DNA of 64,000 nucleotides from a virus. Positions 19,174 to 34,020 of this stretch are shown here, piece after piece (positions within the stretch are counted from its first letter, which is position 1; every line of letters begins with the position of its first letter). The notes beneath the pieces were generated by a model, which saw only the letters and a program-made list of their open reading frames with translations, was not told the DNA's origin and made no database searches. Made by a program: the position numbers and the translations under genes. The stretch covers positions 1 to 64,000 of IMG/VR virus record IMGVR_UViG_3300000651_000003; one strand, written 5' to 3'.

Positions 19174-19833
19174 ATGCCTTACGGAATCAAGCCCTCTGGA
19201 GACAAATTCGTTGTCTACAACACTGACACTGGCAAACCAGTCCCGGGTGGTGAACATGCTACCCGGGCCGATGCTCTGGCACATCAACGAGCCTTAATGG
19301 TGAATGTCAAAGACGCATTGAAAAATTCAGAAGTCACATTCTTTGATAAGAAGGGAAATCCCTGTGACCCTGTCAAAGCTTTCTCAGTTCGAGTAGAGCA
19401 GAATGGAATTGTAGCTTACTCCGGTCCATTGTACTTCGGCGGCCCCGGTAGCGGCAGGCACCCAGAAGGCGGAAGTAAATCAAACCTTCACGATCAAGCA
19501 TCTAGAGCTCACGGCAAAGCAGAAGCAGCCAATTTGAAAGCACATCAATCAGGTAGGTCGAATACGTCTCCTGAAGCTCAGCACGACAGGTTAGCAGCAG
19601 TAAGCTCCTCTAAGAATGCCTTAGAGGCTTCGAAAGCTACTGGAGATCAGCATCTAATCGGAAGAGCGCAAAATGCATTGGACAGCGCGCAAAAAGGAAA
19701 TTTCTACACAGCATCAAACCAGCATGGAGATTCAAGATCGATGCATAGTTCTGCAGCCACCACTAGTAGGCTAGGCGGTCCGGGGCCAGCACGAGGCGAG
19801 CCTATGTACAACTTGGGAAGACGAGTCAAGTGA
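19174..19833 (+). CDS. Head-region protein carrying the FGGPGSG tag
   Basis: N-terminal MPY.I..SGDKFVV...G.H.T..DAL...RAL motif; FGGPGSGRHPEGG at 19435; His/Ala-rich helical tail. Confidence 0.75.
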   Translation: MPYGIKPSGDKFVVYNTDTGKPVPGGEHATRADALAHQRALMVNVKDALKNSEVTFFDKKGNPCDPVKAFSVRVEQNGIVAYSGPLYFGGPGSGRHPEGGSKSNLHDQASRAHGKAEAANLKAHQSGRSNTSPEAQHDRLAAVSSSKNALEASKATGDQHLIGRAQNALDSAQKGNFYTASNQHGDSRSMHSSAATTSRLGGPGPARGEPMYNLGRRVK

Positions 19834-21380
19834 ACCCAGACCTTTCCATAATCCGCGAGTCGGTCAGCGTGTACAATCAAAACGCGCAGGCTGGCGCAGC
19901 CGCGGAACCGAGTCATGGTAACTCGAGGTGGGAACCGAATCCCGGTCCTCAAACTGACGCACTGTTGAGTGAAGCAGATGAGCTATTGTATGGAGGAGCC
20001 GCAGGCGGCGGTAAAAGTGATTTGTTGCTTGGGATACCCGGCATCTCCCATCTGCGTTCCATCATATTTCGACGAGTCTTCCCAGAGCTACGAGGTCTAA
20101 TCGACAGGTCGAGAGAAATCTACAACTTCAGAGGAGACAGCCACGCAAAGGATAGCTACAATGAGCAGCTGCATACATGGCGACTACACGACGGCCGCGT
20201 GATTGAGTTTGGAGCATTGCAGTACGAAAAAGATAAGGAGTCCTACCGCGGCAGACCGCATGACTTCTACGGTTGGGATGAATTGACAGAGTTCACTGAA
20301 TCCCAGTACAGATTTGTCAACGCTTGGAACCGCACAACCAGACCGGGCCAGCGATGCAGAATCATAGCAACCGCAAACCCACCACACACTGACGAGGGCC
20401 GTTGGATAATCGGGTATTGGGGGCCGTGGATTGATGACAAACACCCAAACCCAGCCAAGCCCGGGGAGCTCAGATGGTTTGCTGTCATTGACGGAGAAGA
20501 TGTAGAAGTTGGTGGTCCTCAACCCATCACGCACAAGGGTGAAGTAGTAATACCAAGAAGTCGAACTTTCATCCCCGCGCTGTTGGCGGATAACCCGTAC
20601 CTGATGCGCACCAACTACGGCGCAGTGCTGCAAGGCCTGCCAGAGCCGCTACGCAGCCAGATGCTTCTAGGAGATTTCAAGGCTGGCATCACTGATGACC
20701 AATGGCAGGTAATTCCGACTGCTTGGGTAGACGCCGCGATTGAAAGAGGCAGGCAGAACCGGCTGCCACCCGGGCCGATGACTGCGCTGGGAGTAGACCC
20801 GTCTAGAGGTGGTCGCGACCAATTCATCATAGCACCAAGATTCGACAACTGGTTTGCTCCGCTTATTAAGTACAAAGGAGTACAAGTTCCTGACGGCCCT
20901 ACGGGTGCAAGGTTAGTGGTTGAAGCTCATCAAGGAAATGCTGTCATCAATGTTGACGTAATCGGGCTGGGTTCATCGGTCTATGACTCGCTGAAAGACT
21001 TACCCGGGCTGCAAGTAGTTCCAATCAACAACTCGCAGGCATCGAAGATGCGAGATAAGACTGACAAGTACAAGCTCGTAAATGTCAGAGCAGCGTCGTA
21101 CTGGAAATTCAGAGAGGCGTTAGACCCGGAGAACGAAGTGGGGATTTGCCTGCCGGACGATAACCAGATGCGAGCTGACTTGGTCACTCCTCGATTTAAG
21201 GTTACTGCTCAGGGTATCCTTGTTGAGCCAAAGGAAGATATAATCAAGCGCCTTGGGCGGTCGCCGGACTGTGGAGATGCTGTTGTGATGGCTCACTTCA
21301 TGACTGAGTTGTACCAGCAAGAGCTACCAGCGTTTGCGTTCTTTAGCGCAGAACGCGAAAGCGTGTGGAGGGTCAAGTAA
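19830..21380 (+). CDS. terL: Terminase large subunit
   Basis: PNPGPQ, Walker A GGAAGGGKS, Walker B WDE, TANP, GVDPSRGGRD, RSPDCGDA nuclease motifs. Confidence 0.95.
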   Translation: MNPDLSIIRESVSVYNQNAQAGAAAEPSHGNSRWEPNPGPQTDALLSEADELLYGGAAGGGKSDLLLGIPGISHLRSIIFRRVFPELRGLIDRSREIYNFRGDSHAKDSYNEQLHTWRLHDGRVIEFGALQYEKDKESYRGRPHDFYGWDELTEFTESQYRFVNAWNRTTRPGQRCRIIATANPPHTDEGRWIIGYWGPWIDDKHPNPAKPGELRWFAVIDGEDVEVGGPQPITHKGEVVIPRSRTFIPALLADNPYLMRTNYGAVLQGLPEPLRSQMLLGDFKAGITDDQWQVIPTAWVDAAIERGRQNRLPPGPMTALGVDPSRGGRDQFIIAPRFDNWFAPLIKYKGVQVPDGPTGARLVVEAHQGNAVINVDVIGLGSSVYDSLKDLPGLQVVPINNSQASKMRDKTDKYKLVNVRAASYWKFREALDPENEVGICLPDDNQMRADLVTPRFKVTAQGILVEPKEDIIKRLGRSPDCGDAVVMAHFMTELYQQELPAFAFFSAERESVWRVK

Positions 21381-22198
21381 TGACGAAACAATTCGGTGGA
21401 CCGGGGTCTGGACGACACGCAGAAGCTGGTTCGAAAGAAGTAAAACCAACTGTCACTGGAGCTCAGCAGCCCAAGATAGCTCAGGTGATGAGTCCCGGAA
21501 AATACGTGGGAGCCTTTCAGACAGGAGCAGGCAAACATGAAATTCAAGATCGCACAGGTGACACTCCCAAAGTAATTGGACGTACTCACAATCCGGGTGA
21601 CCAGTTAGGTACTAGAGCTTATCTAGTCAATGCTCATCCTGAAACAGGAGCTACCATATCAACTCACATAGGAAATTACACAGGACTTAACTCAGCTATG
21701 AATGCAATAATGGCTCACACTTCATTGAGAGAAGACCCGGAGTATGTCAAAGATGTATTAGGTGGAGACAAGTTCGGTAAGATAAAGGCATCTGAGATAA
21801 CGTACCTTGACAATCGCGGTCAGCCATGCGAACCATCAAAAGCATTTACAGTAAGGGTAGAGCAAAACGGTTTTGTAGCCCACTCGTTTGGAGGACCGGG
21901 CAGCGGCAGGCATCCTGAAGGAGGAGCGAAAGAAGAGGATAAGTCTCAATCTGATAATGCAAGTAAAGCTCAAGTAGAAGCTGCAAAAGATACTGGGTGG
22001 AAGTTCGGTAACTCAGATCAAATCAAAGGACCAACGGGCATCGAAACGCGTTCGAACTTTACTGACAAGGCAGGCAACAACATCAGACTTGTGAGCGGTC
22101 CAATGGGACACTTCGCTCAGGTCAACGGCAGGCTCGCAGGAGTAGGTTGGACTCCAAGCTTGAAGCAGGCAGTTAAGAATGCCCAGAACATTTTGTGA
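21380..22198 (+). CDS. Head-region protein with two FGGPGSG tags
   Basis: Likely ATG 21380 (TAATG coupling to terL); tags at 21392 and 21887. Confidence 0.75.
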   Translation: MTKQFGGPGSGRHAEAGSKEVKPTVTGAQQPKIAQVMSPGKYVGAFQTGAGKHEIQDRTGDTPKVIGRTHNPGDQLGTRAYLVNAHPETGATISTHIGNYTGLNSAMNAIMAHTSLREDPEYVKDVLGGDKFGKIKASEITYLDNRGQPCEPSKAFTVRVEQNGFVAHSFGGPGSGRHPEGGAKEEDKSQSDNASKAQVEAAKDTGWKFGNSDQIKGPTGIETRSNFTDKAGNNIRLVSGPMGHFAQVNGRLAGVGWTPSLKQAVKNAQNIL

Positions 22199-22551
22199 GG
22201 CTGATGATGAAATATAACCGAGAGGCGAGACCTCATCTTTCTAGTCGTACAGCTCCTCTTCGTAGCGAGGGGTTGAAACAGTTTGGTGGTCCCGGCTCTG
22301 GCCGACACCCGGGTGGAGGATCTACTGAAGACAAAATCAATGCAGCCAATGCAGCCACAAAAGTAGCATACGAAGAGAACAGAGCAGGAGCTCACAGGGC
22401 CGCTGCCGACGCTCATCGAGAAGCGGCAAAGTCGATTACTGTTGGCGGTGGTTCGAAATACGACACCAGCGATTTAAACCACCATATGTCGATGGCAGAT
22501 ACTCACGACCTTGTAGCGAATCAGCTACGAGCTCATGCGATCATGAAGTAG
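22195..22551 (+). CDS. Small head-region protein with FGGPGSG tag
   Basis: KQFGGPGSGRHPGGG (F at 22282) followed by AHRAAADAHREAA; start codon uncertain. Confidence 0.7.
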   Translation: MRLMMKYNREARPHLSSRTAPLRSEGLKQFGGPGSGRHPGGGSTEDKINAANAATKVAYEENRAGAHRAAADAHREAAKSITVGGGSKYDTSDLNHHMSMADTHDLVANQLRAHAIMK

Positions 22552-22554
22552 AAC

Positions 22555-24291
22555 ATGGCAAAACGAACAGCCAAAAAGGCAGCAGAGTCAGACAACCGGT
22601 TGGGGATGACCCCTACGATGCTTGGGCAGTATCCCTCTCCCGAGGACTTCGACCTCTACTCAGAGATGGGTAGAAGCGGCCTGATTCAATACGCAGGTTA
22701 CCTTCACGAGGAAATCCAGCCAGAGTTAGTGGGCAGGCAATGGCGTCGCGTCGCCAAGCAAATGTTGATGAACGACGCGATGATCAATGCTATGTTCCAC
22801 ACTGTTGAAATTCTCTGTCGACAAGTCAAGTTCGATATTATCGGAGGTACTAGTGATCCTAAAGGAGATGAAGCGCGAGACTTCGTTAAGGGTGCAATCC
22901 TCGAGGATATGAATCAACCTTTCACCGAAACTCTGTCTGAGTGTCTAACTATGCTTCCGTGGGGCTGGCACTGGGCCGAGATTGTTTACAAGAAACGCAA
23001 CGGCCCCACCGAGGATGGTACCAGCAGCATCTTCAACGACGGCAAAATCGGGTTCCGCAAGTGGGCACCTCGTGCGCAGGAAACCTTGTTGCACTGGGCA
23101 TTCGACCAAAACGGCGACGTACAAGCGATGGTGCAGCTTTCTCCTCCTGACTGGCACACAACAGCTATCCCGATTTCAAAGAGCCTGTTATTCCGAACAT
23201 CTACCAACAAATCAAACCCGGAAGGCCGCAGCCTGCTGAGAGCAGTGTACGTGCCATATTACTTCAGCTCGAAGATTCAGAATCTCGAAGGTGTGGGTGT
23301 TGAACGAGATGCCACTGGCATACCATGGATGTCGATTCCTTCGGAGTACATGTCTCCTACAGCTACCGATTCCCAGAAAGCAATTTACGAAACAGCCAAG
23401 TCAATCGTAACCAATGTGCGTAACAGCGAACAGGCTGGGTTCGTAGTTCCTTCTGATACTTGGAAAGACGCTAACGGAGCGCCCACTTCTGTGAAGATGT
23501 TCGACTGTGGCTTGCTTCAAAGCGGAGGAGCCAAGCAATACGACACAGCGAAAATCATTGAGCGCTGGGATCGCCGCAAGCTGATGGTAATGCTCGCCGA
23601 CTTCATCGTGATGGGCCATGAGAGAGTTGGTTCATTTGCGCTGGCTGATGCAAAGACGGACTTGTTTGCAGACGCTTGCGGCGGATATCTAGATGCAATA
23701 ATCGAAGTTGTTAACCGGTACGCAATCCCGAGGCTGCTGAAAGTTAACAACATGCCCACGGACAAGCCGCCGAAAATGATTCACGGCGACATTGAGAATG
23801 TTGACCTGAACGAAATCGGGACGTTCATTCTGCACCTCGCTCAGGCCCAGATGAACATCGAGCCTATCGCCAAGCAGCTTTACGAAAGAGCCGGCTTCGA
23901 TGTACCAGCAGACACTCCTCTGGTAGCACCTGCTACTCAGCCAGTTACCGGTTCTCCGATTCCAAAAGGTGGTGGTACTGGCGGAGGCGCTGGTTCTCAG
24001 GAGCAGCAACTGGGCGAGTACCCGCCCACATCCGGGCAGAACAATCAGGGTGAGGGGGATGAGGAGTCTGATGACGAGTCAGCCTTGGTAATGAACGAGA
24101 ATGGCAGAAAACGGTTAGTATTTGCGCCTGCTAATGGTCATAGTAACGGCAAAAAGCAGTTCGCCATGCCGAATGATAAACAGGCAGTCAAGGTTAAAGA
24201 TATCAACGACACGATCGTTTGGCTCAAACGTGAGCGGTTCAACCAACTCGCTCAGATGATGCAGGCCGGCGAGTTCAAGAAGAAAAAGTAG
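22555..24291 (+). CDS. Portal protein (Mu gp29/DUF935-like)
   Basis: GWHWAEIVYK, NPEGRSLLR..Y, GVERD..G.P, GSFALA, N...IPRL...N; position after terL. Confidence 0.9.
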   Translation: MAKRTAKKAAESDNRLGMTPTMLGQYPSPEDFDLYSEMGRSGLIQYAGYLHEEIQPELVGRQWRRVAKQMLMNDAMINAMFHTVEILCRQVKFDIIGGTSDPKGDEARDFVKGAILEDMNQPFTETLSECLTMLPWGWHWAEIVYKKRNGPTEDGTSSIFNDGKIGFRKWAPRAQETLLHWAFDQNGDVQAMVQLSPPDWHTTAIPISKSLLFRTSTNKSNPEGRSLLRAVYVPYYFSSKIQNLEGVGVERDATGIPWMSIPSEYMSPTATDSQKAIYETAKSIVTNVRNSEQAGFVVPSDTWKDANGAPTSVKMFDCGLLQSGGAKQYDTAKIIERWDRRKLMVMLADFIVMGHERVGSFALADAKTDLFADACGGYLDAIIEVVNRYAIPRLLKVNNMPTDKPPKMIHGDIENVDLNEIGTFILHLAQAQMNIEPIAKQLYERAGFDVPADTPLVAPATQPVTGSPIPKGGGTGGGAGSQEQQLGEYPPTSGQNNQGEGDEESDDESALVMNENGRKRLVFAPANGHSNGKKQFAMPNDKQAVKVKDINDTIVWLKRERFNQLAQMMQAGEFKKKK

Positions 24292-24306
24292 AAAGGTGAA
24301 AATCAA

Positions 24307-25047
24307 ATGGCTCTCGTAACAATGCCCTCTCGCGTTCAGAGCAGCACTACGCTCATTCGCCCAGCTAATACCACAGTATACAGCGCAAAGAGCGCCGTTG
24401 GTATCAACCTTGCTGTCTCTGGAGCCACCAACCCTGCATCGCCGTCACCGATCGTAATTACCACACCGGCTCACGGACTGGTCGATGGCGATCCCGTAAC
24501 TATTGCGTCTGTTGGTGGCAATACGAATGCCAACGGAAACTTCTACGTAAAGGTGACTGGGTTCTCCACTACCACCTTTGCTCTATATTCAGACAAGGCT
24601 CTTACTCAGCCTGTCATCGGCAATGCCACATACACTTCAGGTGGAACTGTTGCCAAGGTGCTCCGATTCCAAAAAGTAGTTCGCACCAAGTCCGGTGGCG
24701 GCGGAGTCATCGGAGCTACTCTGTTGACTGACCAGACAAGCAACACTGAGAACTTCAGGCTGCACTTGTATTCAACTCCTCCGACAGCAATTCTCGATGG
24801 CGGCGCATGCTCCTGCCCGTTGATTGCAGACGCTGCTATCTACCTTGGTTCATTTGACTTCGGCGCAGCAAAGACCGAAGGCAGCAGCACATCTGCTTAC
24901 GCAAACGCTGCTCTCACGAATAACAGAGTTAACTTCCAAACATCCTCGATTGAGCGAGATATCTACGGTGTGTTGGAAACCCCAGCAGGATTCACTCCTG
25001 CCAGCGGACAAAAATTCGTCATCAACCTTGTGACCGAGCAGGACTAA
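24307..25047 (+). CDS. Beta-rich virion protein
   Basis: GATN.ASP..IVITT.AHGL.DGD.VTI..V.GNT.ANG module, common in virion proteins. Confidence 0.6.
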   Translation: MALVTMPSRVQSSTTLIRPANTTVYSAKSAVGINLAVSGATNPASPSPIVITTPAHGLVDGDPVTIASVGGNTNANGNFYVKVTGFSTTTFALYSDKALTQPVIGNATYTSGGTVAKVLRFQKVVRTKSGGGGVIGATLLTDQTSNTENFRLHLYSTPPTAILDGGACSCPLIADAAIYLGSFDFGAAKTEGSSTSAYANAALTNNRVNFQTSSIERDIYGVLETPAGFTPASGQKFVINLVTEQD

Positions 25048-28000
25048 ATGCTTGCGTTTCCACCAGCAAAACCTAAGCCACTTACATTCGGTGGCCCGGG
25101 TTCTGGGAACTATGGTCACAGCGGCATCATAGGTCAACGAGGAGGCAGCGGCCCCGGCGGGGGCGTGCCCGATCTACCCGATACCAAAGTAGTGAACTCG
25201 AAAGGCGAACCGCTGCTGGTTTACCACGGCACTGCCAGCGAGTTACAAGGTGGCAAATTTGCGATTAGTGCTCCAGCTGCCCCGTTGAAATGGGAAGGTG
25301 ACGAAAAAGTTCAATTCGCGAAATACACGATCGGCGTGGATATGGTTTTCCACGACAGCAATGCTGGTTCCTACACAGCAGTTCAAAACGGAAGTCTTCA
25401 CCCCGGGTTTAACTCGATGGATGAAGCGAAAAGCTACATCCAATCCGCCCAGCCCGACATTAAATTCACTGGCAGAGATGCAATCTTCTTTGCAGCCAAC
25501 CCAATCTACGCAGAAAAATACGCCAAGGACTACGAAGACAGACCCGGTGGAGGTACGCCAAGAATAATCTCCGCCTACCTTGATTTAAAAAACCCGATGG
25601 ATCCCGCTAAGCCAGAATCATGGGACGCGGTGAAGCCCACAGTAGAGAACTGGTTGAAACAAGAAGAAGGCAGAGTAGTTCCGGAACAGCTAGATAGAAT
25701 GCAAAGTATGTTCAAGGGCGGTTATTGGGGAATGGTAGAAGCGATACCCGGAATGGTAGATGCAATTAAAGCTGCCGGGTACGACGGCTATATCAACAAG
25801 GAAGGAGGAGAGATAAAATACCACGGGCAGTCGGAGCAGAACTACATGAGAAAGGGAGGAGCGGATCGCAGCACAACTTATGCAGTTTTCAACCCCGCGG
25901 CCATACATGTAAGAGAAGAAATACCGAGGGAAACTCAGCGATTTGAAAAGTTGGCCTACTACAAACCCGGCGTCAAAGCCTCTCAAACAAAATCATTCGC
26001 AGCCACTGGTCAGCAGCAACCGTTCTCTGCATACATTTGGAATCCCTACGCCAGAGCATATGTATCGGCCACAGGAGAAGAAGTAGACACCGAGGACTTG
26101 CGCACTCTTGTTGGTGAGCTAATCTCAGACTCCACTGAAAATCTGCGAGCGCTGGCAGAAGCAGTGCAAAACGGTGAGGAAACTAACCTTTCTCAGTTCA
26201 ATATCTCGATGAAAGAGGAACTTAAAAACCTCTATATCGCAGAACATGTTCTGGTTAAAGGTGGCATCGACCAAATGCAGCAGAGCGATTGGGGATCGCT
26301 TGGGTCGTCACTCAAAGACCAGTACTACTACGTAGATAAGCTTACTCGCGACCTCGAGAATGGCGACATTGGAGTCAAGGATGAAAATGGGGAAGTAATT
26401 GTTCGAGATAGCGGGATCCCAGAGCTTGATGATTCATTCCTTGACAGAGTAAGCCTATACACTGAATCTCCATGGGGTGCAGCCGGCGAGTTTGAAAATG
26501 TACTTAAGGACCGGGAAAACGATCTTGGTTCGATGGAGCGTCTTGTTCTTGGTGACAGTAAACAGTCGTGCGCTGAGTGCCTCGCCGACTCAGAACTGGG
26601 GTGGCAGCCGGCTGGAACGCTAAAAGATATCGGAGACCGCGAATGCGATATCGGATGCAACTGTAGTTTTGCGTTTGAAAACCAAGCTCTTGACGAAGCA
26701 GCTCAGTCGTTTGAGTTCAGTGAAGCTTTTGCATTCGGCGGTCCCGGCAGCGGTTGGTATGCATCAGCCGGTCACGTGCCGGGAGAGAAAGCAGAAGAAG
26801 ATAAGAGCATACCCAAGGGGCCGTGGGAAAAAGTCAAGACCGCTGATGAAGCTTTGAAGGCGCTGTCCGAAGGTAGATATGTGCAGCTTGACCCTGACCA
26901 AGTCGGTACGGTAATGACAAAGATGGCTGCGATGGTCAAGGATGCAGAAGCCAAAGGTAAAGAAGCTCCGAAGTACAACCTATGCAACATCTCTGTACCG
27001 GGTACTAACGTCTTTTGTGGAGGTGGCGGAGCTACCCACCCTCGCATTGAGATGCCTCGCATTCCAAACAAAGACCGCAAGGGCTTTGAAGACTACTTAC
27101 GTAGCAAAGGCATCCCGTTTCAGAAAGATGAAGTACGAGTCGACAAGCTAAAGGCTTCTCAAACTGAGATTGACGGAGCCAAGGTTGCTCAAAACATTCA
27201 AACAGCTCGCGAGGGTGGGAAGAACCCTCTGGATTCTCGTATCTTTGTTTCTAAAGATAACTTCATCATTGACGGCCATCACAAGTGGGCCGCAGCTGTC
27301 GGACTAAAGTACACAGAGGGCCAGAACTTCAAGATGAAGGTGGTACGTGTTGATCTACCTGTCACGGTTTTGTACCACGTGGCAAACATGTACACCGATA
27401 AGATGGGTTACCAACGACTGGGTCACGGAGAAAGCTCGTACAAAAAGGCTACCGAGCCATACCAGTTCTATGGCACGGCCAGCAGTGGTAACTACGGTCA
27501 CTTGGGCCGTCCTGGAGAAGTAGGCGGGTCTGGCGAAGGTGGTGAGAAGAGCCAAGAGTACTGGGATCAAGCTAAGCTTGTTGGTCCTCAGGGAGGCTCG
27601 GTGCCGGGAGGGAGGTTCGAAGGGCCAGACGGCAAACAGTATTACGTCAAATGGTACAAAAACCCAGACCAAGCTCGTAGCGAAATCTTTGCACAGAAAG
27701 TTTACAACACTCTTGGAATTAAAACTCCTCAGGGACAGATCGCTACTGTTGATGGTAAGCAAGGCATCGCAACTCCGTGGATACAACACGCCGGTTCGTA
27801 CAAAGATAATGTGCAAGGGCTTCATGACGCGATGGAACAAAACCCAGAGCAAGCGATGAAATTGTTTGTAGGATCGGTAGCTACTCAGAACTGGGATGTT
27901 GTGGGTACAGGAGCAGATAATATTGTATACGATGTTAAGAATTCCCAGCTGGTTCCGATTGACAATGGCGGGTCCTACTTGTTCCGTGCTCAAGGAGGAG

Positions 28001-29772
28001 CTAAAGCGTGGAACGAAAATGCTACCGAAGTAAACACGTTGCTGGACCCAAATAAGAACTACTATGCTGCGGCTGCTTTTAAAGGTATCCTAGACAAACC
28101 TGAGAACTTGTTACTTGGAATGCACTACGCAGCCACACTTATCAAAAATTCAGAGGAGCTGCACGGCCCGGGGACTACCAAGGCTCAGTTCGAAGCGAAG
28201 ATCAAAGATATGAACGAGAAGTTCAATGATCTGTACAAAATCGCTTTGGATAAAGAGGTTGCGAGTAAGGAAGATATCTATACAAAGGCAGGGTTTCCAC
28301 CATACGAGGAGTCTAACGCTGTGATGGGAACTATGGCCCCAGAAGATAAAGAACTAATTGACAAACTCAGCAATACATACCAAGGTGATCCCAACTGGGA
28401 TCCTTTTCAAAATAACTCGGCAACGTCAGTCATTAGGTGGATGGGAGCTAACGGATATAAGTCGGGCGACGTACAGAAAGTATTTGATGCTTACGGGAAA
28501 ACAATTTCTCCTGCTACCATCAAGACTCAGCTCTACGCCGGCAAGACTGGTAAAGGAGATCTCGCCAATCTAAATGAAGGCCACATAGCATCTATAGCAA
28601 AAGCCACAGGGTTTGGTCCTACTTCTTCTGGTGGACAGAAAGTTTCTTCTGCTCCTCCACCCGAGCCTCCTGTTATACCGAAAAATCCCTTCGAGAACAC
28701 TGCTCACTCGAATACTGCTATCATTCGCTACCTCGGTAAAGAAGGATTCTCTGTAAAGCAGGCTCAGGACTATTTTGCACAGCATGGAGCTAAGATCGCA
28801 GACAGCACTTTAAAGATTCAGTTGGCTGCCGGCAAAAACGGTACCCGAGGAGCGCCTGCTAACATCAGCAAAGAAGAGCGAGCCCACATCGAAGCCACTA
28901 TTGGCAAGCCTGCTGGCACGCCTTCAGCCACTGCTGGTCAAACAGTTTCTGCATATCTGGGTTCGAAGACTCCGCTGCCTCCCGACACCAAAGCCAGTGT
29001 GACTGTTGATGGTAAGGACGGCAATGCAAAGCTGGACAAGCATACAGACAACGCCAGCAGTTATTACCAGCAGGTAATGCAGAGCCACCTGATTCAGCAA
29101 GCTAAGGTTAACCCTGCTCTCAAGTCTCAGCTTATTCAAATCTCGATGAACAAGGCAGGAACGATTTATGCTGAAGACAAGAGAATAGAATATGGAGCTA
29201 AGAAAGTAGCTCACGACATACAGAGCTCATGGGGAGGGTCGTCAACGGATCACAACTACACCTCTCTGGGGTTGCAAGTAGCAGTGGCTAATAAGTTCGG
29301 GTTACCCACTACCATCAAGGGTGGTGGTCAGGGAGACGGCACTTACGCAGCAAAGATGGGGTACAAAGAGTGGGGTCTGAAAAGCAACGGCCCATCAGCT
29401 ACTATGCTCGACGTAGCTAAAGAGATTGGCAAGTCGCCTGCATTTGTGGCATTCGCTGACAAGACATATCAGATGACTCAGGAGAACCTAGCTAAACAGG
29501 GTATCAAAGAAGTCACACTTTATCGGTCCATGACTTCTTCAGGAGGAGTACCAAATGTAACTCCTAACTATCTACCAGCCAAAGCGGTACTAAACCCTAT
29601 ATCGTCGTTCTCAACCCAGATGCACTCGTTCGGGCAGTACAAGTTTACGCTGACCGCACCTGCGTCTAGAATCTTTTCTCATGCGAATACAGGCCCGGGC
29701 ACAAACTACGAGAACGAAGTTGTAGTGATCGGCGGCAAAGTATCTACTCTGATTAAAAAGAGTGGTTACTAG
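25048..29772 (+). CDS. Polyvalent MuF-like head protein: ART-like, MuF-like, ParB-like, kinase-like, 2 helical repeats, C-terminal ADP-ribosyltransferase
   Basis: KVVNSKGEPLLVYHGT...GYDG; SCAEC...ECDIGCNC; IIDGHHKWAA; GKQYYVK..NWDVVG..DNI..IDNGG; LYRS..ISSFST..ENEVVV. Confidence 0.8.
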   Translation: MLAFPPAKPKPLTFGGPGSGNYGHSGIIGQRGGSGPGGGVPDLPDTKVVNSKGEPLLVYHGTASELQGGKFAISAPAAPLKWEGDEKVQFAKYTIGVDMVFHDSNAGSYTAVQNGSLHPGFNSMDEAKSYIQSAQPDIKFTGRDAIFFAANPIYAEKYAKDYEDRPGGGTPRIISAYLDLKNPMDPAKPESWDAVKPTVENWLKQEEGRVVPEQLDRMQSMFKGGYWGMVEAIPGMVDAIKAAGYDGYINKEGGEIKYHGQSEQNYMRKGGADRSTTYAVFNPAAIHVREEIPRETQRFEKLAYYKPGVKASQTKSFAATGQQQPFSAYIWNPYARAYVSATGEEVDTEDLRTLVGELISDSTENLRALAEAVQNGEETNLSQFNISMKEELKNLYIAEHVLVKGGIDQMQQSDWGSLGSSLKDQYYYVDKLTRDLENGDIGVKDENGEVIVRDSGIPELDDSFLDRVSLYTESPWGAAGEFENVLKDRENDLGSMERLVLGDSKQSCAECLADSELGWQPAGTLKDIGDRECDIGCNCSFAFENQALDEAAQSFEFSEAFAFGGPGSGWYASAGHVPGEKAEEDKSIPKGPWEKVKTADEALKALSEGRYVQLDPDQVGTVMTKMAAMVKDAEAKGKEAPKYNLCNISVPGTNVFCGGGGATHPRIEMPRIPNKDRKGFEDYLRSKGIPFQKDEVRVDKLKASQTEIDGAKVAQNIQTAREGGKNPLDSRIFVSKDNFIIDGHHKWAAAVGLKYTEGQNFKMKVVRVDLPVTVLYHVANMYTDKMGYQRLGHGESSYKKATEPYQFYGTASSGNYGHLGRPGEVGGSGEGGEKSQEYWDQAKLVGPQGGSVPGGRFEGPDGKQYYVKWYKNPDQARSEIFAQKVYNTLGIKTPQGQIATVDGKQGIATPWIQHAGSYKDNVQGLHDAMEQNPEQAMKLFVGSVATQNWDVVGTGADNIVYDVKNSQLVPIDNGGSYLFRAQGGAKAWNENATEVNTLLDPNKNYYAAAAFKGILDKPENLLLGMHYAATLIKNSEELHGPGTTKAQFEAKIKDMNEKFNDLYKIALDKEVASKEDIYTKAGFPPYEESNAVMGTMAPEDKELIDKLSNTYQGDPNWDPFQNNSATSVIRWMGANGYKSGDVQKVFDAYGKTISPATIKTQLYAGKTGKGDLANLNEGHIASIAKATGFGPTSSGGQKVSSAPPPEPPVIPKNPFENTAHSNTAIIRYLGKEGFSVKQAQDYFAQHGAKIADSTLKIQLAAGKNGTRGAPANISKEERAHIEATIGKPAGTPSATAGQTVSAYLGSKTPLPPDTKASVTVDGKDGNAKLDKHTDNASSYYQQVMQSHLIQQAKVNPALKSQLIQISMNKAGTIYAEDKRIEYGAKKVAHDIQSSWGGSSTDHNYTSLGLQVAVANKFGLPTTIKGGGQGDGTYAAKMGYKEWGLKSNGPSATMLDVAKEIGKSPAFVAFADKTYQMTQENLAKQGIKEVTLYRSMTSSGGVPNVTPNYLPAKAVLNPISSFSTQMHSFGQYKFTLTAPASRIFSHANTGPGTNYENEVVVIGGKVSTLIKKSGY

Positions 29773-29811: not shown

Positions 29812-30030
29812 TTGTTTACAATGCCTGACAGTGATGAAGAAATTATTGTTTACCCAGACGACGACATAGAGAATGCCGACTGGATTAAGACTTTTAGCTG
29901 GGGTCTGCCAACAGACAAAGACGAGTTCCTACAAGCAATTGGCGGCCCTGAGATGCTAGACCACTTCATGACTCTGCCTGCCGCCCGTCCAATGCCAGAG
30001 AGCCTGAAAAAGGAGTTAGGCCTTGCCTGA
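29812..30030 (+). CDS. Small acidic protein, possible immunity partner
   Basis: Directly downstream of the C-terminal ART domain; acidic N-terminus. Confidence 0.5.
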   Translation: MFTMPDSDEEIIVYPDDDIENADWIKTFSWGLPTDKDEFLQAIGGPEMLDHFMTLPAARPMPESLKKELGLA

Positions 30031-30469
30031 GTTCGGTCTTCCAAAAGTGTTTTCCGACAACCTTGAAGACTGGATGCCATTTCCAGACAACATGGAGTCG
30101 CTTGGTATCTCTCGCACTTCTATGCCTCAAGTTCAGGGCCAGCACCGAGGAGCCTTGATCAAATTCCTCAACGCCCGAGGGTTTGACCATGAAAAGAAGT
30201 ACGTAGACCCACAATCGCTTCACCCTTCTCAGGCAGTCTTCTCACCCACCAAAGTTTCCAGAGCGACCAGCTTCCCCGGGCCGCAGAGAGCTTTGATTGT
30301 TAGCAACGACAACTACGTTGCCGACGGCCACCACCAGTGGCTGGCTAACTACACCAACGACGAAATCCCTGTAATTCAAATCGACTGCCCTATTGCTGAA
30401 CTGCTACTTGAGTTATCTCGCTTCCCATCCTCAGGAGTGTCGGACGTCAACGGTAACTCGAAGTACTAA
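30023..30469 (+). CDS. Stand-alone ParB/Srx-like protein
   Basis: R.SMPQV..L.PSQ..LIVSNDNYVADGHHQW, resembling the internal ParB-like domain of 25048-29772. Confidence 0.7.
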   Translation: MPEFGLPKVFSDNLEDWMPFPDNMESLGISRTSMPQVQGQHRGALIKFLNARGFDHEKKYVDPQSLHPSQAVFSPTKVSRATSFPGPQRALIVSNDNYVADGHHQWLANYTNDEIPVIQIDCPIAELLLELSRFPSSGVSDVNGNSKY

Positions 30470-30527: not shown

Positions 30528-32552
30528 ATGGAAGCCTACTGGTTCAGAGATTTCACAAAGGAACAACGTGATAAACTCGCAGAGTCCGGAGCCGCGATGC
30601 CGGACGGGTCCTATCCCATAGCTAATTCAAAGGACCTCGAGAACGCAGTTCGGGCTTACGGGCACAACCCCACTCCTGCTGTCAAGGCTCACATCGTAAA
30701 GCGCGCGAAAGCACTTGGTAAGACAGACGAGCTTCCGGCTGATTGGGAAGGGTCCACAAAACAAGCTTCCGATCCCGGAGTAGAAGATGTGCATGTCCCG
30801 GGAGTTCCTCAGCCCGCGTCCAAGAAGAATGATAATGGGCCAAGCCCACACTTCCTCAAACAACTGTACAAGTTGATGCGAGAGAAGGTAGGCACGATGA
30901 TGTCCGAGTCTGACTTCAACACTGCAGTTAAGAGAGCAGCCGGCCACAGCGGTGGCAAGACAAAAGCAGAGCGACTTAAGGCCGCCATGGAAGCAATCAA
31001 ATCCATGAGTGACCAGCACATAGTTGAAATCTTCAACGACTACATGATCACCTCGAGTGAGGAGGCTTTCTACAAAGTTCCGTTTTCGTTCTCTGACGAA
31101 GACGCTGTCGAGCTGGGAACACCTTCCGAAGTAGAGATGTCTTTCACTCCTGTTTCTGCCAGTGAGAACCTGTTAGACATTTGCGCCGACGGTAAGCAAT
31201 ACTGTCTGTTCAACGAGTTACAACAGTTTAGCACTCCACCGAACCGAATTCCGTTGCTTCCCAAGCCCGGGACGTACAAGCATGACAAGTACGGCTCGGT
31301 AAGGATAACCAAAGAACGCAACCAGCGATTCACTGACAACATCAACAACGGCGTCTACCAAAAGAATCTTCCAATCGACTCGGAACATGAGCTCGACCTG
31401 TCAGGAGCTTTCGGTTACATCAAGAAAGCCAGCATGAACGCTGATGGGTCTGTGGACGGTACCGACATCGAGTGGACTGACCGCGGCAAGAAAGCTTTTG
31501 CCGGCAATCGATTCAAGTATTTCTCTCCGAAGTGGTGGGATGCGTGGACCGACCCGATGACAGAACAGAAGTTCAAAGACGTTGTAATCGGTGGAGCACT
31601 TACGACGCGCCCGTTCTTTAAAGAAAAAGCTTTAAAACCATTGATTGCCAGCGAACACGTTATTCTCTCTGACGGAAACGTGAACGGTAACTCTTCTATA
31701 CCAACAGGAGCTAAGAAAATGGCGACAACCGAACAGCAGATCAAAGAGGCCCGGACGCTGGTAGCCGCGGCAGAAGCCAAGGCAATGTCGGAAGCCCTCG
31801 AGGGAAAGACCGACGAAGATATCGAGAAGGCAAAGGCATTAGTTGCGTCAGAAGACGCCCGCATTGCTGCTGAGAAGTCAGCCAAGGATCCTGATGGCGA
31901 CGGCGATGATGATACAAGCGCGTCAGGTGACTCGGATAACTCGCACTTCGACGACAAGGGCAACAAGAAGCCCGGCATGTTCGATAAGGACGGCAAGCCA
32001 CTCGCCACCAAACAAGCATCAGCCAAAAAAGGCGAACCTGAAGAAGCAAAAGAGGCAACCGAAATGACAAAAGAATTCTCAGACCGGCTCAATGCTGCCG
32101 AAGCAGAAGCTCGTTCATTTAAAGAGAAATTGGAAACTGCCGAGAAAGAAGCGAAACGAGCCAACGACCGAGCTGACGCTCAGGAAAAGGCAAACCGTCT
32201 GATGAGATTTACGTCGATGGTCAAGGGCTGGCCCGGGCAAGCACAGCAAAACATCGAGCTACTGGAGCACTTCGCAACCACATGTGGCGAAGACAGCAAA
32301 GAGTTCAAGGCATTCGTCGATGTGCAGCAAGCTTCGGCGAAACAAATCGACGAGGCTGGGTTGTTCAGTGAGATTGGATCGAGCTCGGCTGTTGAACCTG
32401 ATTCGGCTCTCGGTGAGCTCAACACCAAAGCCGCGGCCCTGAGAGCTTCGGACCCGAAACTGACTCAGGCCCAAGCATTCAGTGACGCCTGCGCTCAGAA
32501 CCCAGAGCTCTACGATCGGCACCGTCGCGAGCAACGCCGTCAGTTCAACTAA
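30528..32552 (+). CDS. Prohead protease/scaffold fusion (Mu gpI-like)
   Basis: LPIDSEH..AFGYI..EWT.RG...FKYFSP..GGALTTRPF protease motifs; charged coiled-coil C-terminus; N-terminal AMPDGSYPI..DL.NA domain. Confidence 0.85.
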   Translation: MEAYWFRDFTKEQRDKLAESGAAMPDGSYPIANSKDLENAVRAYGHNPTPAVKAHIVKRAKALGKTDELPADWEGSTKQASDPGVEDVHVPGVPQPASKKNDNGPSPHFLKQLYKLMREKVGTMMSESDFNTAVKRAAGHSGGKTKAERLKAAMEAIKSMSDQHIVEIFNDYMITSSEEAFYKVPFSFSDEDAVELGTPSEVEMSFTPVSASENLLDICADGKQYCLFNELQQFSTPPNRIPLLPKPGTYKHDKYGSVRITKERNQRFTDNINNGVYQKNLPIDSEHELDLSGAFGYIKKASMNADGSVDGTDIEWTDRGKKAFAGNRFKYFSPKWWDAWTDPMTEQKFKDVVIGGALTTRPFFKEKALKPLIASEHVILSDGNVNGNSSIPTGAKKMATTEQQIKEARTLVAAAEAKAMSEALEGKTDEDIEKAKALVASEDARIAAEKSAKDPDGDGDDDTSASGDSDNSHFDDKGNKKPGMFDKDGKPLATKQASAKKGEPEEAKEATEMTKEFSDRLNAAEAEARSFKEKLETAEKEAKRANDRADAQEKANRLMRFTSMVKGWPGQAQQNIELLEHFATTCGEDSKEFKAFVDVQQASAKQIDEAGLFSEIGSSSAVEPDSALGELNTKAAALRASDPKLTQAQAFSDACAQNPELYDRHRREQRRQFN

Positions 32553-32597
32553 TCACGAATTTCTACTTCTTCGTACCTTTAAAGGGAGGACGCTACA

Positions 32598-32990
32598 ATG
32601 GCATTCGAGCAACCCGGAGCAATGGACGGTGGTCGCCCAGCAGGCGCAGACCTTTCGAGTCATCAATTCAAATTTGTCAAACTCAATTCGAGCGGTCAAG
32701 TAATCCTCTGCGCCGCAGCAACCGACAAGCCCTATGGCATTTTGCAGAACAAGCCTATCTCTGGCGCGGCTGCAATCGTCATGCGTGACGGGATGAGCAA
32801 GGTAGTCTGCGCAGGCGACAATGTGAAAGGCAACGTCGGGGGTACTGACGCCAATGGTTTGTTCGCTCCCTATGTCTTTGGCACTGACACCACCAAGTAC
32901 ATCTGTGCAGAAGTGGTAGTTGACGCAGACAACGCCAACGGCATCGGTACTGTGAGTTTCTCGTGCTACTGCCCGCCACGCGGGGCGTAA
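32598..32990 (+). CDS. Capsid decoration/cement protein
   Basis: AGADLS..QFKFVK..GILQNKP..G.AA motif, between protease and capsid genes. Confidence 0.75.
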   Translation: MAFEQPGAMDGGRPAGADLSSHQFKFVKLNSSGQVILCAAATDKPYGILQNKPISGAAAIVMRDGMSKVVCAGDNVKGNVGGTDANGLFAPYVFGTDTTKYICAEVVVDADNANGIGTVSFSCYCPPRGA

Positions 32991-33051
32991 CTAAGGTTTC
33001 TAAAAACGTTTTCGGATGAAATTCGAAACGAAATAACTCTGGAGGAGTGAT

Positions 33052-34020
33052 ATGCCGCAACCAACCCTGAGTGACGTCCACGTAGACGTACCGCTAACTA
33101 ATATCTCAGTGGCGTATATTCAGCAGCAGGACGCCTACATTGCAACTCAGATTTTCCCGATCGTTCCTGTAGAGAAGAAGACCAACAAGTACTTCTTCTA
33201 TACCAAGAACGATTGGTTCCGGGATGAGGCAGAGGCGCGAGCCGACGCTACTGAGTCAAAGGGTTCTGGCTACGGGCTGTCGACCAACACCTACTCGTGC
33301 GAGGTTTACGCCTTCCACAAGGACATTGGTTATCAGACTCGTGCAAACGCTGATGCCCAAATTGACCTCGACCGTGACGCTACCACCTTCGTTACTCAGC
33401 GGCTTCTGCTCCGGCAGGAAATCCAGTGGGTCAGCGATTGTTTCACCACCGGTAAATGGGGCACCGACGTTGTAGGCGGTACCAACTTTACCCAGTGGAG
33501 TGACTTCACAGCCGGCGATCCTATTGAAGACGTTGAACAGGGTAAGGAGACCGTGTTGGCCAATACTGGGTTCATGCCGAACACCATGGTGCTCGGATAC
33601 CAGACCTACCGCAAGGTACGCAATCACCCAGTCATCATTGACCGCATCAAGTACACCACTGGAGTTACTGGAAGAACGGTGACTCCGGCTCTGCTCGCTC
33701 AAATGTGGGATATCGATCGCGTGCTGGTGGCTCGTGCAGTCAAGGCTACCAACAAAGAAGGTGAAACAGCCGCAATGTCGTTCACCTTTGGGAAGCACGC
33801 CCTGCTCGCTTACGTGAACCCGAACCCGGGACTACTGACGCCTAGCGCTGGTTACACGTTCTCATGGCGTGGTGTTTCACAGGGACTCGGCGCAGACGTT
33901 GGCATCACCACTTTCCCGATTCGTCGCCTGAAGGCAGACCGGGTTGAAGGTGAAGTAGCGTTCGCAAACCAGATTGTGGGAAGCGACCTCGGTTACTTCT
34001 TCTCCGGCGCAGTAGCGTAA
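33052..34020 (+). CDS. Major capsid protein
   Basis: VHVD.PLTNISVAY.Q...IA..IFP.VPV, PNTMVLG, PSAGYTF, GYFFSGAVA; strong RBS. Confidence 0.92.
   Translation: MPQPTLSDVHVDVPLTNISVAYIQQQDAYIATQIFPIVPVEKKTNKYFFYTKNDWFRDEAEARADATESKGSGYGLSTNTYSCEVYAFHKDIGYQTRANADAQIDLDRDATTFVTQRLLLRQEIQWVSDCFTTGKWGTDVVGGTNFTQWSDFTAGDPIEDVEQGKETVLANTGFMPNTMVLGYQTYRKVRNHPVIIDRIKYTTGVTGRTVTPALLAQMWDIDRVLVARAVKATNKEGETAAMSFTFGKHALLAYVNPNPGLLTPSAGYTFSWRGVSQGLGADVGITTFPIRRLKADRVEGEVAFANQIVGSDLGYFFSGAVA

Follow-up and report, generated by a model that had tools for sequence, protein, structure and literature searches.

What might a short glycine-rich peptide be doing when it recurs in front of otherwise unrelated protein modules among the head genes of a phage? 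The question is raised by a 64,000-nucleotide stretch of viral DNA (IMG/VR record IMGVR_UViG_3300000651_000003, positions 1 to 64,000; hereafter the window), which makes up the first 64 kb of a contig of 97,308 bases and encodes the heptapeptide FGGPGSG (hereafter the tag) repeatedly around its terminase and portal genes. The comparisons described below indicate that the tag is very probably the functional header of cargo modules carried in the capsid. We also judge it reasonably likely, from comparative sequence evidence, that the tag is a prohead-protease site, in which a lineage-specific residue occupies the position before the cut (P1) and a universal header is left on the released cargo. 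Cleavage, the exact cut position, packaging and injection are steps that we infer from these comparisons.

Six-frame translation of the window confirmed the copies reported in an initial annotation of this DNA. Exact FGGPGSG begins at positions 19435, 21392, 21887, 22282, 25087 and 26734, in each case on the plus strand and inside a long open reading frame (ORF), and a variant, FYGTASSGNYGHLGRPGEVGGSG, begins at 27466; together they occupy four genes. No further copy of FGGPGSG was found in the whole 97,308-base genome, and the number of copies expected by chance from amino-acid composition over six frames is 4e-4. The six exact copies share 71% DNA identity over 21 nt but just 31% at third codon positions, so the tag is conserved at the protein level, as had been claimed. 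The extent first given to the tag was only partly right: FGGPGSG itself stood, whereas an extension to FGGPGSG[RNW][HY]xxxG, visible once the window copies were aligned, and the longer parent motif described below had been missed. The core GGPGSG followed by N, R or W and then an aromatic residue or His is present in six of the seven window copies. Four copies have a first-half-only form, GGPGSG-RH-PEGGS, in which RHPEGGS stands in place of the second half, and one has a W-type form, GGPGSGWYASAGHVPGE, with YASAGHVPGE in that place. The 25087 copy has the full length but a degenerate second half, while the one at 27466 retains the Phe and combines a degenerate first half with a perfect second half; among the window copies, GH-x-GRPG-xx-GGS is intact at 27466 only. 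A single genome thus provides natural dissections of the tag into first half only, second half only and full form.

A profile of the seven window copies, searched against longer proteins, recovered a wider motif, x-GGPGSGNFGHxGRPGxVGGS followed by a glycine run, that separates unrelated modules in hundreds of metagenomic phage proteins. Judged by its sequence, the window tag is a partly shortened local form of this 20-residue motif. Among these modules are ADP-ribosyltransferases (ARTs) and Zeta toxin, Fic, PI3/PI4-kinase-like, 2'-5' RNA ligase, GNAT, NUDIX, ParB, MuF and portal domains. When 102 instances were made into a profile, it matched 6,987 cluster representatives out of 1.84 billion at E ≤ 1e-3, with up to 10 copies per protein, and a profile built from 100 other phage instances also took in the window's copies. 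A DNA pattern for GGPGSGNFGH identified at least 119 IMG/VR loci and, among the matches listed, positions left free in the search pattern (P, N, F, G, R, P and S) are still 81–98% conserved. The short form is a class of its own: exact GGPGSGRHPEG occurs at 25 IMG/VR loci, with up to 11 copies per contig, and long forms are absent there. Since the short form occurs alone in these other phages, the first half can stand alone, which suggests that it is sufficient.

The motif was found across hosts from Clostridia to an archaeal metagenome-assembled genome (MAG), together with differing portal, capsid and protease families. The archaeal case is a Methanomassiliicoccales MAG contig (L171, CALKWP010000078.1, binned with the archaeal genome) that carries a full-form tag with R before GG; most other matches on genome contigs are Clostridia prophages with D in this position. 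The motif is apparently undescribed. It was found in no Pfam model and in none of the solved structures, against which the profile gave only chance FlgE matches (E > 1), and literature searches for motif strings and pattern spellings (GGPGSG, GHAGRPG and GRPGEVGGS) found none in a phage context. The region had no megablast match among 50,697 cultured phage records, and no match came from tblastn searches of cultured phages with carrier 2 (one of the tagged proteins) or a 24-residue consensus, but the low-complexity filter probably masks the tag in these searches, so its absence from cultured phages is not established. Two cultured phages that share cargo domains, DSL-LC01 and Cr-LKS4, lack the tag. 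Two other origins for the sequence were rejected: a link to the adenylate-kinase P-loop GGPGSGK, because Lys/Thr is absent from the tag, and Asn- or Ser-based self-cleavage, because N and S are both absent from some short-form copies in the window.

Near-constancy across portal, capsid and protease families and across hosts suggests that whatever reads the header does not evolve together with the phage, as would be expected if the universal header acted after delivery or on a universal ligand, for example through an AT-hook-like contact of GRPG that tethers cargo to the DNA or as an N-terminal signal in the host cell. We regard this as improbable, given that the short form, in the window and at the 25 other loci, does without the entire GH.GRPG half, and that such a role leaves the covariation of the residue before GG, presented below, unexplained.

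The layout of tagged proteins points to a header. Of 120 carriers, 70 have their first tag no more than 45 residues from the N-terminus and eight no more than 10, the C-terminal 55 residues are free of tags in all 120, and the median module between tags is 203 residues long; tag positions and module lengths together indicate that the tag heads the module after it. Many carriers, including P0002, P0004, P0023, P0047, P0075 and P0108, also share a leader of about 25 residues before the first tag (M-x-x-x-P-L-x-P-x-x-x-A-R-x-L ... L-R-x-L), which may be a separate anchoring or targeting helix.

A near-isogenic relative, L001 (IMG/VR contig 3300000893_000005), shows modules exchanged and a gene split at the tag. 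It is 96–99% identical to the window over most genes and 99.7% identical in its portal protein. The two genomes are mosaic exactly at the tagged genes (carriers 1 to 3 and the long gene for a 1574-residue protein; Table 1), with homology breaking at tags, at window positions 21417 and 26780. Carrier 1 of L001 has gained an additional tagged module and has a different module behind the tag; in carrier 2, homology ends just past the first tag, at 21417; and the whole gene for carrier 3 is missing. The long gene of L001 has gained an additional ART-like module between two W-type tag copies and is split at the second (W-type) tag, where the second half opens with a leader of 14 residues, similar to that of the gene itself, and then the tag. 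Fission and swaps that keep the header imply that the modules work either fused or as separate genes. Apart from the tagged genes, L001 carries a 1060-bp in-frame insertion (353 residues, L001:5098-6157, relative to window 20013/20014) in the terminase large subunit gene terL, which in the window lacks it; the insertion has weak LAGLIDADG and homing-endonuclease matches and looks like an intein. Another tag locus, L142, encodes a 910-residue Mu-type portal ORF (L142:3482-6211, minus strand) with an insert at about residues 293–681 that matches LAGLIDADG_3, as well as PHROGs annotated as terminase or primase, and is probably an intein inside the portal gene.

Exchange at tags between near-identical phages, and a sequence rich in Gly, Pro and Ser, are also what would be seen if the tag were a passive flexible linker that is conserved as a recombination joint for module shuffling. 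However, the third codon positions are nearly random (31–37% identical), so there is little DNA homology on which to recombine, while the N, F, H, R, P and S positions are 81–98% conserved in the protein. As a passive joint would in addition leave unexplained why a genome-specific residue tracks the protease family, we consider this explanation very improbable.

That residue is the one immediately before GG, which the initial annotation had proposed might covary with protease type. In a sample of 303 copies from 91 loci with at least two copies each, it is the same in 89% of within-locus pairs, compared with 23% upon permutation (maximum 30%). At the third positions of the invariant Gly codons, identity is only 37% within loci and 30% in random pairs, and this near-randomness alongside a concordant residue indicates that the copies are old and that selection has kept the residue. 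Most loci fall into the classes K, D and L/A; the window and its relatives have F. To relate these classes to their surroundings, tagged ORFs were split at the tags, the modules and neighbouring ORFs were clustered, and cluster representatives were annotated. The residue before GG does follow the protease family: it is K at all 11 loci with Peptidase_S78 and all four with Peptidase_S78_2, D at all 15 with the phrog_530 subfamily of DUF2213, and L, A, H, Q or N at the 17 with the phrog_760 subfamily of DUF2213. No protease family crosses residue classes among these loci. An independent set of 30 prokaryote genome contigs gave the same association (both S78 cases have K, and all 10 DUF2213 cases have D or A), so that in the combined data S78 or S78_2 accompanies K at 17 of 17 loci and DUF2213 accompanies D or L/A-type residues at 42 of 42. 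Loci L128 and L142 have a portal of the window's Mu-type family, and L128 additionally a major capsid protein (MCP) of the window's family, but both encode an S78_2 protease and have K instead of F. Cargo families are common to several residue classes, and a module therefore takes on the local residue.

Positions further upstream are also class specific. P3 is V, I, L or F in 66% of K-class copies and R or K in 71–83% of copies in the L and A classes, which share one protease subfamily, while P2 is E in 32% of the D class. A hydrophobic P3 combined with a small P1' is typical of cleavage by herpesvirus assemblin (V/L-x-A|S) and T4 gp21 (L/I-x-E|). The S78 protease of HK97 cleaves at K103/S104 (PMC10275583), and a cut after K103 fits the association of K with S78. 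Literature searches on DUF2213 found nothing on its specificity. For the window, the candidate reader is the Mu I-type head maturation protease encoded downstream of the tagged genes; no full homologue was found with the Mu I profile at the other tag loci, so the link between F and this protease type comes from the window's clade alone. A relative 64% identical to the window's protease itself carries QF-GGPGSG at residue 80, again with F. At L128, one ORF (L128:4488-6308, minus strand) joins a methyltransferase-like module, a K-GGPGSGRHPEGG tag and the Peptidase_S78_2 head protease; this protease is itself a tagged module and could perhaps release itself.

The same association would arise if the tag were an address label only, binding a partner in the procapsid (a scaffold, a carrier protease or the inner capsid surface) to load modules without ever being cut, given that a protease that recruits cargo could also covary with it. 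Free-standing genes carry the tag 4–30 residues from their start, where no separator is needed, and the header is conserved far above the needs of a cleavage site, both of which suit a label. Yet one label per polypeptide would be enough, while MuF and portal fusions carry up to 10, one per module start; furthermore, a class-specific P4-P1 pattern followed by small P1' and P2' residues resembles the subsite pattern of a protease, and K with S78 agrees with the HK97 cut after Lys. On balance we think a pure address label unlikely.

The protein encoded at 30528-32552 had been called a protease in the initial annotation, and this was upheld: it is a Mu I-type protease/scaffold with a phrog_328 match, most of its homologues carry PF10123 (Mu-like_Pro), H287 and S333 are invariant in 24 homologues, and part of its predicted structure gives a middling match to T4 gp21. 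The AlphaFold2 model (mean predicted local distance difference test score 73.6) consists of a beta domain followed by long helices, as expected of a protease-scaffold fusion. Residues 227–361 of the model matched T4 gp21 (5jbl; Z 7.0 over 120 residues, root mean square deviation 3.8) and varicella-zoster virus (VZV) protease (1vzv; Z 6.9), whereas Foldseek with the whole model returned nothing below 1e-3. With the DUF2213 model, the top Foldseek match was T4 gp21 (E 3e-4, probability 1.0), and H76, S126 and H156 are invariant in this family. Pairwise hhalign comparisons of the DUF2213, S78 and Mu I alignments, which are shallow, gave no homology (probability below 12%). From the models, an assemblin-type fold is likely for DUF2213 and plausible for the Mu I domain; S78 presumably has the same fold (MEROPS clan SH), and the candidate tag-reading proteases may therefore share one fold.

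Taken together, these data are best explained if the tag is a processing signal in two parts, carried by proteins that become incorporated into the phage head. Upstream of GG, the sequence (P4-P1, here ending in Phe) would fit the specificity of the phage's own Mu I-type protease, while the part from GG (P1') onward would be a header common to phages that otherwise differ greatly. Cleavage would take place in the procapsid, between Phe and Gly-Gly, and would remove the short leaders and separate the modules of the 1574-residue protein from each other and from their MuF-like portal anchor, such that each freed cargo module starts with GGPGSG. The freed modules (ADP-ribosyltransferases, the ParB-like nuclease and others) would then leave with the DNA at infection. 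As every module would have its own header, modules could be gained, exchanged or separated into different genes at the tag and still function.

Several observations weigh against this model. No cleavage product has been observed for any tagged protein, and the tag is absent from the window's other head proteins, which means that the usual substrates of the protease, if any, use other sites. The covariation derives from few independent lineages of related loci, and most head genes change along with the protease, such that only the L128/L142 contrast separates them. The protease of one F-class locus, L023, matches none of the four protease profiles, and gp21 and VZV protease, the only structures matched across the Mu I domain, were matched with middling scores. 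Carrier 2 would lose just four or five residues on cutting, which makes little sense unless the header has an importance of its own. Finally, conservation of the P' side over 20 residues, across protease families that are unrelated by hhalign, is unusual for a plain cleavage site, and the header probably has a further role. Its strong conservation could reflect an S' groove that related proteases have kept, a contact made during loading of the procapsid, or a function after delivery.

The four tagged carriers alternate with terL and the Mu-type portal gene (Table 1), and Pfam and PHROG annotation bore out the earlier description of them as interleaved with terminase and portal. Carrier 1 has no Pfam or PHROG match. 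For carrier 2, a start at the internal ATG would place the first tag at residue 5, and a database protein, P0005, begins in a comparable way (MTKQF-GGPGSG). Carrier 3 consists of a leader of about 26–30 residues, the tag and a module of about 75 residues. A module of about 35 residues (consensus ...PC.P.KAF.VRVEQNG.VA..) lies immediately before a tag in carriers 1 and 2 and in both of their L001 counterparts.

The 1574-residue protein is encoded among the head genes, with the portal gene before it and the protease and capsid genes (30528-34020) after it. It opens with a 14-residue leader, a full-form tag, and ART-PolyVal and MuF-like domains; a W-type tag, a ParB-like module and a tag with only an intact second half follow, and a multi-domain tail of about 770 untagged residues ends in a weak DRAT-like ADP-ribosyltransferase. 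ART-PolyVal was assigned by Pfam PF18760 (38.1 bits against a cut-off of 31.2). The MuF-like region (residues 328–547) matches phrog_24776 (E 1.4e-21) and has a Cys-rich end, with no match to Pfam PF04233, while residues 645–798 match the ParB-like phrog_2859 (E 1.7e-24) and residues 835–1110 form a domain common to phage genes annotated as ADP-ribosyltransferase. At least two unrelated effector domains in one polypeptide define a polyvalent protein, and this protein has them. The initial annotation had placed its tags at domain boundaries; this holds for three module boundaries, which would give three cut points, but its other boundaries are untagged. The untagged tail includes two tandem repeats of about 90 residues (…IRWMGANGYKSGD…, …IIRYLGKEGFSVKQ…) with weak helix-turn-helix-like matches only. 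Just upstream of the protease gene, a free-standing gene encodes an untagged 148-residue protein that matches phrog_2859, like the ParB-like module, and so represents a second instance of a domain of the cargo type.

Table 1. Tagged carriers, tag copies and neighbouring features in the window.
Feature	Position	Strand	Size	Remarks
Carrier 1	19174..19833	+	219 aa	N-terminal module, ~35-aa pre-tag module, tag, low-complexity C-terminal module
Pre-tag module, carrier 1	19327-19434	+	~35 aa	VRVEQNG consensus
Tag, carrier 1	19435-19476	+		Short form, FGGPGSGRHPEGGS
Terminase large subunit (terL)	19830..21380	+		phrog_979, E 3.9e-44
Carrier 2	21365..22198	+	277 aa from GTG; 272 aa from ATG at 21380	Two tags
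Tag, carrier 2, first	21392-21433	+		Residue 5 of ATG form
Pre-tag module, carrier 2	21788-21886	+	~35 aa	VRVEQNG consensus
Tag, carrier 2, second	21887-21928	+		
Carrier 3	22195..22551	+	118 aa; 114 aa from ATG at 22207	One tag
Tag, carrier 3	22282-22323	+		
Mu-type portal protein	22555..24291	+		Pfam Portal_Mu, E 1.1e-25; phrog_113, E 2.5e-70
Polyvalent protein	25048..29772	+	1574 aa	Three tags
Tag, polyvalent protein, first	25087-25152	+		Full form
Tag, polyvalent protein, second	26734-26787	+		W-type
Tag, polyvalent protein, third	27466-27534	+		Second half only
Tandem repeats, polyvalent protein	28378-28947	+	two of ~90 aa	Untagged tail
Free-standing ParB-like gene	30023-30469	+	148 aa	phrog_2859; untagged
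Mu I-type head maturation protease	30528..32552	+	674 aa	Candidate tag reader; phrog_328; helical scaffold-like C-terminus
Probable major capsid protein	33052..34020	+		Groups with MCPs of L128 and L023, which match phrog_1005 major head protein

Several known systems resemble parts of this arrangement. In the T4 internal proteins and Alt, an N-terminal leader directs cargo to the prohead, where it is removed by the assemblin-fold protease gp21 before the cargo is injected; this leader has about 10 residues, ends in L/I-x-E, occurs once per protein and is not known outside T4-like phages. The leaders in the window differ in ending F-GG, and the tags also lie internally, are common to several head lineages and have no sequence resemblance to the T4 leader. 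The earlier proposal of a modular tag cut after the residue before GGPGSG has gained comparative support. The T4 targeting sequence that it invoked is unrelated in sequence and serves only as an analogy of function. The encapsulin cargo-loading peptides are likewise short and glycine-rich and address unrelated enzymes to the inside of an HK97-fold shell; as far as the analogy goes, they appear to differ in being usually C-terminal, of another consensus, uncut and not multi-copy. MuF polymorphic toxins of temperate phages, reportedly described by Jamet et al. in 2017, join a MuF anchor to variable toxin modules that are thought to be delivered with the DNA, but they have one anchor and one C-terminal toxin. 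In the giant phages, the head protease cuts many internal head and ejection proteins at a recurring motif (SPN3US gp245 and phiKZ gp175; PMC10052503); there, N-terminal propeptides are removed and mostly exit the head, and a 20-residue P' header and a module-by-module layout are not reported. The arrangement also resembles the phage-type polyvalent proteins (Iyer, Burroughs, Anand, de Souza and Aravind 2017, PMC5512222), which are long head-associated chains of unrelated conflict enzymes (including ART-PolyVal, ParB-like and MuF domains) encoded beside portal and terminase genes. Processing into separate domains was proposed for these by embedded zincin peptidases, whereas no embedded peptidase of this type was detected in the window's carriers, and term searches of the text of PMC5512222 found no mention of a glycine-rich junction motif.

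If the proposed role is correct, the tag would bear on a general aspect of phage biology. Together with their DNA, phages deliver proteins that disarm host defences, and to our knowledge the choice, packing and release of this cargo are understood for a few model phages only. We tentatively entertain a broader possibility, which we would not call probable, that the header is a portable and near-universal tag of tailed phages, with which any protein that also has, ahead of the header, the residue suited to the local assemblin-fold head protease would be packaged into the procapsid, cut free and delivered with the DNA; injected enzymes would then be traded between phages as plug-in cassettes. 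A tag present in about 7,000 protein clusters, with the residue before GG seemingly tuned to the local head protease, would provide a sequence rule for spotting injected cargo in metagenomes and a possible handle for loading chosen proteins into phage capsids. The movement of cargo modules from phage to phage would likewise be accounted for.

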